DNA of 34,318 nucleotides from a virus. Lineage: Duplodnaviria; Heunggongvirae; Uroviricota; Caudoviricetes. This document shows, piece by piece, positions 12,586 through 20,002 of this stretch. Below the pieces are notes generated by a model. It ran no database searches, was not told the DNA's origin, and was given only the letters and a program-made list of their open reading frames with translations. The stretch is from the IMG/VR virus record IMGVR_UViG_2534681675_000028; one strand, 5' to 3'. Both the position numbers and the translations under genes were made by a program. Positions within the stretch are counted from its first letter, which is position 1. The number at the start of each line of letters is the position of its first letter.

Positions 12586-13276
12586 GTGACTGAATTAACC
12601 AAAGAGCAATTAATCGAAGAAGCCAAATTAAAAATAGCGATTGCGAAATGCCACCCCAATTCAGGGATGGCACGGGTAGAGGGCGAGTTATTCAAAATTG
12701 CACTGGCATCGCTGGTAGCAGAACCGCTGGTGCCCGTCATGTATAAAGGAATGAAACTGTTAACAAAAGAGGGGCTTGAGCTTATTCGTGACGGTATTGC
12801 GGAGGCTACGGGACTGGAAGCAATGTGTATGGCTGATGCTTTGCTGTCTGGGGGGGGGGGCAGTGCCGTCAGTGCCGAAAGAAATGTATTGGCAGGATGC
12901 ACCAGTTGAAAGTAGCAGCAAAGCAGCTGCATACGCTACAGGCTGGAAAGCCTGCCGCGAAGCCATGCTTCAGTCCGGAAACTTTCGGGATAATAAGAAT
13001 TCGTCAACCAACAATTTTCGGGAAATCCCGGAAACGTCAACCAGCTCTCAGGGAACTCCGGCTGGCTGGATAAGCTGTAGTGATGCAGTTCCTGCTGAAT
13101 ATTGCGATGTGATTCTGCGCGATGATCTCGGGAATGTATTCCCCGGTTCATGGGATAAGGTTTTTTGCCCCACTCGTGGCGGGAATAAGATGGCTTTTGT
13201 GGACAAAGACGGCGTCGAAGTAGAGAGCTCAACCCACTGGATGCCGCTACCAGAATCGCCGAAGGTGGTGAAGTGA
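12586..13276 (+). CDS. Ea22-like/DUF551-type protein split into two overlapping ORFs (12586-12909 and 12776-13276) at a G11 homopolymer
   Basis: Two ORFs in frames +1 apart meet at the G run 12850-12860; removing one G gives a single ORF (…LLSGGG|AVPSVPKEMYWQ…); C-terminus has the HWMPLPE motif I associate with DUF551. Confidence 0.5.
12850..12860. repeat. G11 homopolymer inside a coding region
   Basis: Direct reading: ctg followed by ten g. Confidence 0.9.
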
Positions 13277-13450
13277 TGGAAAATGAATTCGAAAATGCTA
13301 TCGCCACGGTGCAGCCAAAATCAATAGTTGAGTAGACTTACTCTGAGGCTTGACTACGAGGTTACCATTAGGTGTAATTTAGAGTAAGTTGGTAGCCTCA
13401 GTTGTCGAAGAGGCATAATGGTGATTGTTAGTTGATGCAATAATTAAGGA

Positions 13451-13942
13451 ATGTTAATGCCTACTAATGCTGAACAACCAGTATCAATTAGTAAACCGAA
13501 GACCGTTACACTTCGTGCTTTTGAAATAAAAAACACTGCACTTTCGAAAAGTTCTAGCGAAGCTAAGGCCGATTTGATAGCAAGGCTTAGTCAAGTAAAA
13601 CAGGCAAAAGATAGATGCATGTTGTTAAATCCAGAAGATCCTAAGCAGGAAAGAGATGTTCTTTCGTATTTTAAAGAATCTCCTGTTACTGATTCAGTAT
13701 TTTGCACTATGTTAAGGATTACATCTGACAAAGAAATCCAACACATAACAGATTCTCTTTTTGAGAAAGAGGTCTTTTCTCTGGATGATATAGAAACATC
13801 TCATTTAGATGTGTCAGCAATATGTAAAGGCCATTACTATTTTTGCATGAGTGATGATTTTTTAGTTACAAATCTCCCATTAAATAAAACGATTGTGCGT
13901 TTACAAACGTATCTGAGTTGGTTTACAAATAATGAGCTTTAA
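13451..13942 (+). CDS. Hypothetical protein, gene A of an AT-rich accessory cassette
   Basis: 163-aa ORF; markedly AT-rich relative to flanking phage genes; family not recognised. Confidence 0.5.
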   Translation: MLMPTNAEQPVSISKPKTVTLRAFEIKNTALSKSSSEAKADLIARLSQVKQAKDRCMLLNPEDPKQERDVLSYFKESPVTDSVFCTMLRITSDKEIQHITDSLFEKEVFSLDDIETSHLDVSAICKGHYYFCMSDDFLVTNLPLNKTIVRLQTYLSWFTNNEL

Positions 13943-13957
13943 GAATTCACCCCACTA

Positions 13958-14470
13958 GTGTCAGCAAAAGGGAAAACGAAACTTAGTGATTTAAAAGCCA
14001 TAATCGTTAAAGATCCAGAACCGTTAGTACCGACTGCTATGTGTGATGAGTCTGGTGTTAGAAGTAAAAAGGGAGAAATTACGGTTAGCGAAGGTCATAA
14101 ATCTATCAAGTTAACACAAAAAGTTCTGGATATTATCAGGAGTTCGATGTCAGACTCTGAACAACTTAATGATATGATGCTGAGTCAAATGATTTCTGCT
14201 GAATTGTTAATAAAATTTAAAAAGCCACGCAGAATGACAGATGATGAATATAGTAGAGCTTTAGGGGCTTATTTGAAACCCGTTAGCGATCTTGATAATG
14301 TATCATTTAAGCGAAAAGATAACAAAACAGAAGTGAAAGGCAAGGATTTGCTGTTAACAAAGTCTGTAAGTATTGAAACGACACAGTCAGGTAAATTAGT
14401 TGAGCATCATTTGCTACAAGAGATGAGCAAGTTTTTGCTAGAGTTAAGCAATGAAAAAAATAGCGGTTAG
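13958..14470 (+). CDS. Hypothetical protein, gene B of the cassette; same reading frame as gene A, separated by a single TAA; no evident Shine-Dalgarno
   Basis: 170-aa ORF; in-frame continuation after the TAA at 13940-13942 reads EFTPLVSAKGKTK…. Confidence 0.4.
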   Translation: MSAKGKTKLSDLKAIIVKDPEPLVPTAMCDESGVRSKKGEITVSEGHKSIKLTQKVLDIIRSSMSDSEQLNDMMLSQMISAELLIKFKKPRRMTDDEYSRALGAYLKPVSDLDNVSFKRKDNKTEVKGKDLLLTKSVSIETTQSGKLVEHHLLQEMSKFLLELSNEKNSG

Positions 14471-14912
14471 CGTATTATCAATATTGCTGCTCACATTGTT
14501 GGCTAGTTCAGTCTGGGATGTTCGTCCGGACGGTTTTTTTGCGTCGACAGTTTTTACAATTTCTGGAATAATGTTCTCAATTGGATTAGGGCTAATTGTG
14601 AATTTTAGCACATCCGGTGTAAGGAACCGTGGATACATTCTGCGTATTAGACGTAATGTAATGAGGGTGAGGAATTCATTTCTATTATATTTTGGTTTGT
14701 CGACTTTTTCTTACATAGCAAATCAATATCTTACTGCTTTTGAGTTTTCTTTAACCTTTGGTGATGGTATCAAAACATGTTTTAGCGCATCCATATTCTT
14801 TTGCTTGCTTATAATTTATTCCTCTATATATTTTGTTGTTAATTTTATAGAGTTGCAAAAACTCAATAATGATATTTTTGATAAAGTCAATGCGGAAATA
14901 ACTAACAAATGA
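14451..14912 (+). CDS. Small polytopic membrane protein (about 4 predicted transmembrane helices), gene C of the cassette
   Basis: 153-aa ORF overlapping the end of gene B by 20 nt; four long hydrophobic segments; AT-rich. Confidence 0.55.
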   Translation: MKKIAVSVLSILLLTLLASSVWDVRPDGFFASTVFTISGIMFSIGLGLIVNFSTSGVRNRGYILRIRRNVMRVRNSFLLYFGLSTFSYIANQYLTAFEFSLTFGDGIKTCFSASIFFCLLIIYSSIYFVVNFIELQKLNNDIFDKVNAEITNK

Positions 14913-15123
14913 AATGGCTTTTGTGTGCATGTTAAATAAAGAATACATGGCATCATTTAATGATGTCATGTGTAACGAGCGAAAAGCCTTTTGAACGGTT
15001 TTCATAAGTTATATTGAAAGATAAAATTGCTGCGGGTGCTTGAGGCTATCTGCCTCAGGCATGAACACCAACGGCAGATAGATAAAAGCCCCACCCGACT
15101 ATAAATCGAAGTGAGGCCCCTAT

Positions 15124-15336
15124 ATGCTCGTCACATACAGATTGCCTCTTACGGACCGAAAGGTCAAGGAGAAGCAGGCTATGAAGCAGCAAAAGGCGAT
15201 GCTAATCGCCCTGATCGTCATCTGTTTAACCGTCATAGTGACGGCACTGGTAACGAGGAAAGACCTCTGCGAGGTACGAATCCGAACCGGCCAGACGGAG
15301 GTCGCTGTCTTCACAGCTTACGAACCTGAGGAGTAA
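15124..15336 (+). CDS. mok: mok-like reading frame (N-terminally extended, in frame with hok)
   Basis: ORF in the same frame as hok sharing its stop codon, the arrangement I recall for chromosomal mok/hok pairs. Confidence 0.5.
   Translation: MLVTYRLPLTDRKVKEKQAMKQQKAMLIALIVICLTVIVTALVTRKDLCEVRIRTGQTEVAVFTAYEPEE
15181..15336 (+). CDS. hok: Hok/Gef-family type I toxin (51 aa)
   Basis: MKQQKAMLIALIVICLTVIVTALVTRKDLCEVRIRTGQTEVAVFTAYEPEE closely resembles Hok (…[25 protein letters not shown]…); AGGAG Shine-Dalgarno. Confidence 0.8.
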   Translation: MKQQKAMLIALIVICLTVIVTALVTRKDLCEVRIRTGQTEVAVFTAYEPEE

Positions 15337-15403
15337 GAGACCTGGCGGGGAGAATTCCCTCGCCACCTCTGATGTGTCAGGCTTCCTCAACGCACCCGCA
15401 CTT

Positions 15404-17216: not shown

Positions 17217-17577
17217 TATTCAGCTGGTTATGGAGCGGTGGGGAGCATGGGCAGCAAGTAATCATGAAGATGTAACATGGTCCTCGATAGCTGCTGGTTT
17301 TAAAGGATTAATCCCGACTAAAGTGAAATCACGTCCTCAGTGTTCTGATGATGACGCCATGATAATTTGTGGCTGTATGGCACGATTAAACAAGAATAAT
17401 CAGTATTTGCACGATTTGTTGGTGGATTATTACGTAGGTGGAATGACATTTATGGCTCTTGCACGTAAGCATAGATGTTCTGATGGGCTTATTGGTAAAA
17501 GACTTTATAAAGCTGAAGGTATTATTGAAGGAATGCTTATGGCTCTGAATGTCCGGTTAGATATGGATATGCGGTAG
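17203..17577 (+). CDS. Q: Late-gene antiterminator Q (phage 21/82-type, QuuD-like)
   Basis: 124-aa ORF; [34 protein letters not shown]…[16 protein letters not shown] matches my recollection of QuuD. Confidence 0.85.
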
Positions 17578-17670
17578 GGATATATAGTGACGAGGGTTAT
17601 GTTTTCCGTGTTTATAATTAATATGTTTATTTTTTGATGGTCATGAATTTTATGGAAGGTAAACAAAATG

Positions 17671-17699
17671 TTGCCAGGTGAATTGAAAATATTGATAAT
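17671..17699 (+). promoter_or_regulatory. Sigma70-type promoter (TTGCCA, 17-bp spacer, GATAAT) downstream of Q: candidate late promoter pR' or cargo promoter
   Basis: Direct reading: -35 at 17671-17676, -10 at 17694-17699; about 30 bp upstream of the next start codon. Confidence 0.45.
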
Positions 17700-17730
17700 C
17701 AATCATCATCATTAAATAAAAGGAGTGTTT

Positions 17731-18549
17731 ATGTGGATTGTGTTAGCACTGTCACTGTCAACTCTCAGTTGGCATAAGGTAGTGGCTTTTTCATTGTTGA
17801 CGGTGTCTGTTGTCCTGGCTGTGCTTAATGATATTATTGATTGGCCGGTGTTGTTTTTTGTTGCTACAATCGTTTTTTTTATTATTTTGAAGTTCAACTG
17901 GAAATATAACGCCTGGGCTAAATCCATATATGAAGCTGGCATAGTTTTATCAGCCATAGCATTATCTTTCCATTTATGGCCAGGGTTTCACAATCCTGTA
18001 GTGCTAAAGTCTGTCACTGTCGGACCTCAAAGCACTCCCTATACAATGTATTTTAATTTTGATAAAGCGCTGGTGCCATTTTTGTTAGTCCTGTGTACAG
18101 CTTCTTTGTTTAAAAAAGAAGTGAAATCAGAAGTGTCTTTGTGGAAATGGGGGGCTCTGTTGCTCTCTGTTCCTCTTATACTGTTTTTGGCTGTTTTTTT
18201 TGGTGGGTTAAAGCCAGAGATTCATTTTCCAGAGTGGTTGCCAGAGTTTATATTGGCTAATTTGTTTTTTGTGTCTCTGGCAGAGGAGTCATTATTTAGA
18301 GGGTATATTCAATCACGGCTATCAGAAGTGACGTCTCCATTGGTTGCGTTAATTGTGGCGTCTTTGTTGTTTGGTTTTTATCACTATTCAGGTGGTGCTT
18401 TACTTGTATTATTTGCCACGTTATCTGGTGTTGTGTATGGATTGTCATGGATGTGGAGTGGGTGCTTGTGGGTGGCAACCCTTTTCCATTTTGGTCTGAA
18501 TCTGTGTCACTTGTTATTCTTTACCTATCCATTCTTAAAACATAATTGA
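17731..18549 (+). CDS. CPBP-family (CAAX protease / Abi, PF02517-type) intramembrane metalloprotease
   Basis: 272-aa polytopic ORF with AGGAG Shine-Dalgarno; conserved motifs EExxxR (AEESLFRGY), FxxxH (FGFYHY) and HxxxN (HFGLNLCH). Confidence 0.75.
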   Translation: MWIVLALSLSTLSWHKVVAFSLLTVSVVLAVLNDIIDWPVLFFVATIVFFIILKFNWKYNAWAKSIYEAGIVLSAIALSFHLWPGFHNPVVLKSVTVGPQSTPYTMYFNFDKALVPFLLVLCTASLFKKEVKSEVSLWKWGALLLSVPLILFLAVFFGGLKPEIHFPEWLPEFILANLFFVSLAEESLFRGYIQSRLSEVTSPLVALIVASLLFGFYHYSGGALLVLFATLSGVVYGLSWMWSGCLWVATLFHFGLNLCHLLFFTYPFLKHN

Positions 18550-19848: not shown

Positions 19849-19924
<76 letters not shown>

Positions 19925-19927
19925 TAT

Positions 19928-20002
<75 letters not shown>

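Follow-up and report, generated by a model that had tools for sequence, protein, structure and literature searches.

An AT-rich cassette in a lambdoid prophage carries an interrupted RexA-like gene and a membrane-protein gene, probably a RexAB-type exclusion module

Among phage-exclusion systems Rex has been known for the longest time, and how it works has still not been settled. Here we analyzed an AT-rich cassette located in 34,318 nucleotides (nt) of DNA from a virus of the Caudoviricetes (IMG/VR record IMGVR_UViG_2534681675_000028). This whole stretch is referred to as the window, and coordinates are those of the window unless a locus is named. The window overall represents a lambdoid prophage, with replication, nin, Q, tRNA, lysis and head genes present. 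An initial annotation had described the cassette as three open reading frames (ORFs), two for soluble proteins (A and B) and one for a membrane protein (C), and had likened them to RexA and RexB of phage lambda.

Gene content of the cassette

Similarity between the window and a prophage of Escherichia coli STEC005 is lost at position 13323 and returns at 15018; the cassette was therefore delimited as 13324..15017, with no strand assigned to the unit as such. The unit proposed initially (13300-14912) was thereby corrected at both ends. The guanine-plus-cytosine (GC) content was 0.33-0.35 across 13501-15000 and approximately 0.45-0.54 on both sides. Calculated by region it was 0.345 for the cassette, 0.468 for the left flank, 0.526 for the right flank and 0.498 for the whole window, which bears out the AT-rich nature of the block. 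The cassette occupies a variable slot between a DUF551 gene and hok of a Qin-like lambdoid prophage. Ead/Ea22 and DUF551 genes are located upstream and Hok/Gef, DUF968 and RusA genes downstream, so that the setting next to replication and nin genes, with hok adjacent and RusA downstream, was described correctly.

The three ORFs were found on the plus strand at 13451..13942 (ORF A, 163 amino acids, aa), 13958..14470 (ORF B, 170 aa) and 14451..14912 (gene C, 153 aa). A and B share one frame and C overlaps the end of B by 20 nt; sizes, frame and overlap all agree with the initial annotation. Its division into three ORFs with two soluble products, on the other hand, did not hold. A and B together make up a single gene of 337 codons, here named AB, and only a TAA codon at 13940..13942 (plus strand) separates them. 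In strain OkiPb01695 (locus L001) the Prokaryotic Genome Annotation Pipeline (PGAP) annotates a single 337-aa coding sequence (CDS) spanning A and B, and its translation is uninterrupted. The intact 337-aa orthologue is P0001 (WP_464291681.1). Between 13300 and 14950 the window differs from L001 at three positions. One of these is 13941, which is A in the window and T in L001 and which changes TTA (Leu162) to the stop codon TAA.

Ten further E. coli loci carried an identical gene C. Eight of them had TTA and an open frame and the other two had TAA. TTA is present at nine loci when L001 is included (L001, L050-L053, L055-L057 and L059), and the two TAA loci, L054 and L058, were 100% identical to the window over 13200-15100. 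Furthermore, the 161-aa fragment was present on 84 contigs of the protein collection. The stop codon is therefore no read error but a genuine allele that has spread clonally, and the TAA allele represents a single clonal lineage. Split AB fragments are also on record in E. coli strain STEC_7v.

A recurrent nonsense mutation in different allelic backgrounds was considered as well, an idea that came from 170-aa B proteins with the polymorphisms of different intact alleles, and was rejected. The 170-aa entries of L055 and L056 are gene-calling artefacts, because the DNA of both loci has TTA and an open 337-codon frame. In general, gene callers often report only the GTG-started 170-aa ORF where the long frame is open (as in L055 and L056, 3508-4020), which inflates the apparent number of split alleles.

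The start codon of AB is likely the second ATG at 13457. It lies six nt after AAGGA and is the start chosen by PGAP, and the first ATG contains a single-nucleotide polymorphism in other alleles. From this start the 5' fragment A (13457..13942, plus strand) comprises 161 codons and matched positions 6-160 of the AB profile (E = 5.7e-74). The 3' part B (13943..14470, plus strand), of which the ORF from GTG 13958 covers 170 codons, matched positions 162-333 (E = 6.9e-70).

Conservation and predicted fold of AB

Intact AB had 195 homologues at E ≤ 0.01, nearly all of them 310-350 aa in size and matching over the full length. Among the named sources are Escherichia, Salmonella, Cedecea, Klebsiella/Raoultella, Enterobacter, Yersinia, Pantoea, Serratia, Pectobacterium, Photorhabdus, Xenorhabdus, Proteus, Providencia, Acinetobacter, Neisseria, Oligella, Haemophilus, Actinobacillus, Avibacterium and Glaesserella. 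All 195 proteins are labelled hypothetical and none has a Pfam domain. An alignment of 68 sequences consisted of a conserved N-terminal part, a variable linker and a conserved C-terminal part and contained 16 invariant columns; R53, D67, R87 and K274 belong to the invariant residues. When the AB profile was searched against 1.84 billion cluster representatives (clusters counted at 50% identity), 418 clusters were found at E ≤ 1e-3 and 183 at E ≤ 1e-30.

For the intact protein, AlphaFold modelling based on this alignment reached a mean predicted local distance difference test score (pLDDT) of 77.8 and a predicted template-modelling score (pTM) of 0.74. In the model, residues 15-185 form an N-terminal domain of seven strands, which is followed by a disordered linker (190-219), a C-terminal domain made of four strands and several helices (219-306) and, at residues 316-336, a long terminal helix. 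The structure search which the initial annotation had proposed for a fusion of A and B returned lambda RexA (8twq_B) as the top Foldseek match in the PDB, with E = 1.4e-5 and a probability of 1.00. In the published description of RexA (PMC11077077), a four-stranded dimerization domain containing four helices interrupts the globular domain, which has a seven-stranded sheet, and a C-terminal helix completes the fold. The order of elements in the AB model is the same: seven strands in the N-terminal domain, four strands with helices in the C-terminal domain and the long helix at the end. All parts by which the RexA fold is recognized were thus present in the AB model. Additionally, a conserved basic motif, KFKKPR(K/R), was found at AB residues 253-259, within the domain equivalent to the one carrying R219 and K221 in RexA. 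By analogy, AB would be a cytoplasmic, dimeric sensor that binds DNA non-specifically.

RdgC and the kinetochore proteins IML3/CHL4/CENP-N, which share a two-domain DNA-binding scaffold, were secondary structural matches of AB, as has been published for RexA. AB could accordingly be read as an RdgC-like modulator of recombination or of the nucleoid that acts in phage DNA metabolism, with C as an unrelated neighbor. However, these proteins scored below RexA, have no membrane partner and differ in genomic context and biology. AB neither matched Pfam PF04381 nor had RdgC as its best structural match, and we consider an RdgC-like factor very improbable.

According to the AlphaFold layout, a product ending at codon 162 lacks two of the globular domain's seven strands along with the entire C-terminal half. 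Part B of the window holds the last two strands of the globular domain, the variable linker, the equivalent of the RexA dimerization domain and the C-terminal helix. The truncated product, judged from the model, is unlikely to fold or to dimerize. A RexAB-type system is expected to have both genes intact, and here the sensor gene is interrupted by TAA at codon 162. Because of this truncation the copy of the window is probably inactive, or left with the membrane protein C alone.

The membrane partner C

Gene C (14451..14912, plus strand) encodes a predicted inner-membrane protein of 153 aa in the position of RexB, as judged by its homologues, conserved motifs, AlphaFold model and linkage to AB. 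The 93 homologues are approximately 150 aa in size and share 12 invariant columns as well as the motifs SGIMFSIGLGLIVTFN..GVKN and NFxExQKLNNDIFDK. The AlphaFold model (pLDDT 82.8) contains helices at residues 2-21, 28-50, 60-94 and 113-152, with a short hairpin between the last two. Of the four hydrophobic helices described initially, three pass a Kyte-Doolittle threshold of 1.6; the third (residues ~75-95) is only weakly hydrophobic, yet it is a helix in the AlphaFold model. A basic N-terminus is followed by two helices, a strongly basic loop (7 K/R versus 5 in RexB), two further helices and a short polar tail. In loop charge and topology this layout parallels that of RexB. By its predicted topology, C is therefore the kind of protein known from lambda directly after rexA, an inner-membrane protein of ~144 aa with four helices. 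We infer that C would be a membrane effector with a conserved cytoplasmic C-terminal helix.

Scans of Pfam, PADLOC, PHROGs and NCBIfam gave nothing meaningful for AB or C, in agreement with the initial impression that no sequence family was recognizable. PGAP made no call for gene C in OkiPb01695. It called a 72-aa ORF on the minus strand over the 3' end of C instead (L001 9452-9670, corresponding to 14751-14969 of the window), which is almost certainly wrong because gene C is conserved. The missing call in a complete genome and the lack of a match in four profile libraries would both be expected if the ORFs were chance open frames in AT-rich junk DNA. Against this stand hundreds of full-length homologues in several bacterial orders, invariant residues, conserved gene order and confident AlphaFold models for both proteins. 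The conservation data refute such an origin.

Linkage of AB and C

For the analysis of linkage, the AB and C profiles were searched against six-frame ORFs. C was located directly after AB in all 23 sources first collected, namely the window, E. coli, Salmonella, Acinetobacter, Photorhabdus, Xenorhabdus, Leminorella, Atlantibacter, Orbaceae, Oligella, Pasteurellaceae, Aggregatibacter, Haemophilus, Neisseria and a metagenome-assembled genome (MAG) of the Deferribacterales. The same order was found in 72 of 73 viral contigs from IMG/VR, the remaining contig ending too early to tell. In most pairs the start codon of C overlaps with the stop codon of AB. Frameshifts in AB were also present in L020, L023, L091 and L133, so that the window is not the only locus in which the sensor gene has decayed.

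Decay of the sensor with an intact partner raises the question of whether C could act alone, as a membrane toxin or by blocking DNA entry, with AB regulating or neutralizing it as in the reversed Butters pair gp30/gp31. The module would then be a toxin-antitoxin (TA)-like or a superinfection-exclusion (Sie) pair. C is indeed intact and identical in the lineage with the nonsense codon, the cassette adjoins the hok toxin locus, and the Butters pair is an example of Rex-like proteins with reversed roles. Nevertheless, no C without AB was found among 95 pairs examined, though AB was fragmented in a few of them. An essential antitoxin function of AB should make the TAA allele lethal, yet this allele occurs on 84 contigs, and C matched no known toxin or Sie family. 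Altogether, we regard a pair driven by C as rather improbable. In the E. coli lineage, where C is intact, the sensor is broken and hok is adjacent, C might have a role that is independent of the sensor. RexB of lambda has been proposed to interfere with the protease-dependent turnover of antitoxins.

Three further observations on gene pairs of this kind were made. A 452-aa protein (P0224, MFV0481862.1) from a Campylobacteraceae MAG carries a RexA-like part (residues 2-308) fused in frame to a C-like part (308-450; E = 5e-40). This suggestive single case may have arisen by natural fusion or from an assembly error of one base. The canonical lambda-type rexA decays beside an intact rexB as well (L047 1632-2476; L046 2501-2944), the same pattern as in the window. 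On one contig rexA was found in pieces of 68 aa and 152 aa upstream of an intact rexB, and on a Sodalis contig rexB occurred with no rexA called upstream.

Genomic context of the module in other prophages

In many relatives of the AB-C pair a co-oriented prophage repressor gene directly precedes AB, or one or two small genes lie in between. The order in a Salmonella prophage is cII/YdaS, divergent from a CI-type helix-turn-helix (HTH) repressor, then AB, C and kilR-gam-recT. In Acinetobacter prophages and phage TCUAN1 a repressor with HTH and S24 domains and a 71-aa ORF precede AB and C. Pfam HTH_3 and/or Peptidase_S24 was found in the upstream co-oriented gene of the Photorhabdus, Leminorella, Orbaceae, Atlantibacter, Oligella, Acinetobacter and Aggregatibacter loci. 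The 66 viral contigs with enough upstream DNA yielded 50 distinct nearest upstream co-oriented ORFs, 26 of which matched HTH_3 and 22 Peptidase_S24. The pair is thus normally located directly downstream of the repressor gene, and for that reason AB and C would be made in lysogens.

Among 50,697 phage genomes searched with AB by tblastn, only Escherichia phage PhiR68_2 and Acinetobacter phage TCUAN1 matched. PhiR68_2 is lambda-like and has the order ren-P-O-cII-cro, cI, homologues of AB (341 aa) and C (149 aa), one hypothetical protein and gam-bet-exo. Here the pair takes the slot of rexA-rexB in lambda. As a family, AB-C therefore combines a RexA-fold protein and a membrane partner downstream of an immunity repressor; the pair of the window, instead, is found in the nin region. 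Away from a repressor, the module was also found among tail genes in Xenorhabdus, and in Pasteurellaceae, Haemophilus and Neisseria it is flanked by housekeeping genes.

This arrangement would also fit a module that mainly modulates the switch between lysis and lysogeny. The RexA-fold protein would bind near the operators or contact CI and thereby bias the prophage towards lysis, as has been reported for lambda RexA, and the membrane protein would antagonize it. The usual position of the pair next to repressor and cro genes and the RexA fold of AB are consistent with such a function, and two reports describe a role of RexA in the bistable switch that is independent of RexB (bioRxiv 10.1101/2021.04.19.439022; PMC11077077). 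However, the module also occurs away from repressors, in the nin region of the window and of other E. coli prophages and at the Xenorhabdus, Pasteurellaceae, Haemophilus and Neisseria loci mentioned above, and a switch alone would hardly account for the strict pairing with a membrane protein. Moreover, both roles are compatible and in lambda they are not mutually exclusive. We consider it unlikely that modulation of the switch is the main function.

Within E. coli, the near-identical cassette was found in the DUF551-hok slot of several different lambdoid backbones. In STEC005 this slot is occupied by an unrelated hypothetical gene, and other genomes carry ORF6N or KilA-N genes there, with rem and hokD nearby. 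By megablast against 5,426 complete E. coli genomes the cassette was detected in one genome only (OkiPb01695, L001) with 99.8% identity, and no match was found among phage genomes.

Two further points concern neighboring systems. A DUF3024 gene is located directly upstream of the canonical rexA in Dryocola (L048 1205-1546) and is the nearest gene upstream of AB in three IMG/VR loci, so that DUF3024 may be a recurrent companion of Rex-type modules. The Gifsy-1 defense gene gipd474 known from the literature was considered and proved unrelated to the cassette; it encodes an ATPase.

Leader region and neighboring genes

The cassette begins with a non-coding leader of 133 nt (13324..13456, plus strand), as read from the sequence. 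By eye, a candidate sigma-70 promoter was noticed, with TTGACT at 13350-13355, a spacer of 17 nt and TGTAAT at 13373-13378; a promoter at 13350-13378 is thus possible. The Shine-Dalgarno sequence AAGGA is located at 13446-13450. Nucleotide similarity of the Salmonella copy to the window is confined to coding DNA (13445-14882), therefore the leader is specific to the version in the nin region of E. coli. Three perfect short inverted repeats with mutually crossing arms were found within 13336-13422 (9 nt at 13336/13381, 8 nt at 13343/13394 and 7 nt at 13364/13416). They may be due to chance or may be protein-binding sites. The idea of a structured leader RNA was dropped, the predicted fold of the leader not being significant (z = -1.5).

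Upstream of the cassette the DUF551 gene appears frameshifted. It is represented by two ORFs (12586..12909 and 12776..13276, 691 nt in total) as compared to one CDS of 690 nt in OkiPb01695. The register with L001 is lost near 12850, and L058, a member of the same TAA lineage, has a split call as well. Counted together with the nonsense codon in AB, at least two inactivating lesions are thus located within 1.2 kb in this prophage lineage.

Immediately right of the cassette a Hok/Gef toxin ORF with an upstream in-frame extension was found at 15124-15336 (Pfam HOK_GEF, E = 2.9e-23). The hok copy in OkiPb01695 is annotated as frameshifted, and sister prophages have a ParDE pair or rem in the neighborhood of hok. 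A second AT-rich block (GC 0.35-0.41 over 17501-18500) is located just after the Q antiterminator gene. The product of 17725-18549 in this block is an intramembrane protease of CPBP/Rce1-like type (PF02517 in the identical locus L054). The block is another moron-like insertion, and it may be linked to immunity or defense. Finally, genes for tRNA-Thr (TGT) and tRNA-Gly (TCC) at 19849-20002 are located between the Q region and the lysis genes and are also annotated in the prophage of OkiPb01695.

A probable Rex-like exclusion module

By fold, gene order, type of partner and genomic slot the AB-C pair is of the RexAB type, and by sequence it is outside the family of lambda RexA and RexB. The likeness to the Rex proteins that was suggested initially is supported by lambda RexA as the best structural match in the PDB, by the strict pairing of AB with C and by the Rex slot downstream of cI in the relatives. 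The cassette is probably a two-gene prophage 'moron', a RexAB-type exclusion module that belongs to a widespread unannotated family. Modulation of the switch, a TA- or Sie-like pair driven by C and an RdgC-like factor are all weaker explanations than Rex-like exclusion. A further extension is conceivable though rather doubtful: RexA-fold sensors would be modular, C would be an independently recruited effector rather than a diverged RexB, and the family would represent the principal Rex-type system in prophages of Gamma- and Betaproteobacteria, larger than that of lambda.

Several points weigh against assigning the pair to Rex-like exclusion. At the sequence level, neither P0001 nor any of the 68 AB members matched Pfam PF15969 at E ≤ 10, and none of 56 C members matched RexB (Pfam PF15968) at the same threshold. 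PADLOC, which the initial annotation had proposed to consult, matched neither protein. Its RexA (PDLC02339) and RexB (PDLC02340) profiles did not match AB and C, respectively, while lambda RexA and RexB used as controls were matched at 1.3e-108 and 9e-61. The AB profile had zero matches among PDB sequences. With hhalign the probability of AB versus RexA stayed below 1% in several settings, either with lambda RexA alone or with the 185-sequence AB profile against a shallow four-sequence RexA profile. For the C profile against an alignment of 14 RexB sequences it was 0.1%, with no signal against RexB alone.

At the level of structure, the Foldseek TM-scores (template-modelling scores) between AB and RexA were low (0.34-0.39), presumably because the two hinged domains differ in relative orientation. 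The corresponding search with C, also proposed initially, returned no match in BFVD at E ≤ 1e-3 and RexB was not within the top 50, small helical membrane bundles being poorly discriminated in such comparisons. The cassette of the window is not adjacent to a repressor and lies in the nin region between DUF551 and hok. Scanning 13100-15400 for promoter and terminator consensus gave no more sites than shuffled sequence. Moreover, the roles of the two proteins are reversed in the Rex-like system Butters gp30/31, and RexA also has a function unrelated to defense.

With these points in mind, a Rex-like mode of action can be proposed by analogy with lambda Rex and with RexABpp of Pseudomonas putida. 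Infection by another phage would activate the RexA-fold sensor, perhaps through DNA-protein intermediates of replication or recombination. The activated sensor would then trigger the membrane protein C and cause an ion leak or depolarization, which would arrest the cell and so abort the infection. In the window the cassette has instead been placed into the DUF551-hok slot of the nin region, and its sensor gene bears the clonal change from TTA to TAA at codon 162.

For the window itself the message is modest, as its copy is probably dead. The family is of wider relevance. Several hundred diverged members are found in prophages of E. coli, Salmonella, Klebsiella, Enterobacter, Yersinia, Acinetobacter baumannii, Haemophilus, Neisseria and others, and they are invisible to Pfam, PADLOC, NCBIfam and PHROGs. 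The genes of AB and C that are now annotated as hypothetical or left uncalled can be corrected accordingly. The natural diversity of the pairs is useful for comparing how a RexA-fold sensor couples to a membrane effector, and intact and nonsense alleles in near-identical cassettes offer a ready-made experimental contrast.

Comparison with known Rex systems

As of January 2026 five Rex-like systems have been described (PMC12894663), to which the AB-C family would add a sixth lineage. The initial annotation had called the cassette undescribed. This applies to the AB-C family itself; RexAB-type systems as such are known, as the same five examples show (PMC12894663).

The pairs of the actinobacteriophages Sbash (gp30/31), CarolAnn (gp44/43) and Butters (gp30/31) resemble AB-C in that a prophage encodes a RexA-like cytoplasmic protein, 337-372 aa in size, together with a membrane protein. 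Several of them adjoin the immunity repressor, and they exclude heterotypic phages. They differ in having been found by BLAST to RexA in actinophage databases and in their hosts, which are Actinobacteria.

RexABpp of P. putida prophage P1 (PP_5643/PP_5644; Sci Rep 2026, PMC12894663) is located downstream of a CI-like repressor, like many relatives of AB-C. Its sensor is approximately 37 kDa in size (37.5 kDa when His-tagged) and similar in this to the 337-aa AB. In contrast to AB, for which profile comparisons did not find RexA, PP_5643 was linked to RexA by HHpred (PMC12894663). RexBpp is longer than C, with at least 181 aa versus approximately 150 aa. The BLAST relatives of RexABpp were reported from pseudomonads only, whereas the named sources of AB homologues include no Pseudomonas.

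Lambda RexA-RexB (PDB 8TWQ; PF15969/PF15968; PDLC02339/02340) has the same general design as AB-C, a soluble two-domain protein followed by a four-helix membrane protein of ~145-153 aa. The patterns of charge and topology are similar in RexB and C. For neither protein was there detectable sequence similarity to its lambda counterpart, and AB is about 60 residues longer than RexA, with its two domains joined by a linker of about 30 residues that is disordered and variable. Additionally, the AB and C genes overlap, whereas rexA and rexB of lambda are separated, and the cassette of the window differs from lambda rexAB in its location in the nin region and in its broken sensor gene. In the same kind of search C was represented by 93 clusters and lambda RexB by 23, which makes the AB-C family much the larger of the two. 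Many AB-C relatives, in turn, are located directly downstream of cI, and the pair of PhiR68_2 lies exactly in the lambda slot, so that AB-C replaces rexAB in an otherwise lambda-like E. coli phage.

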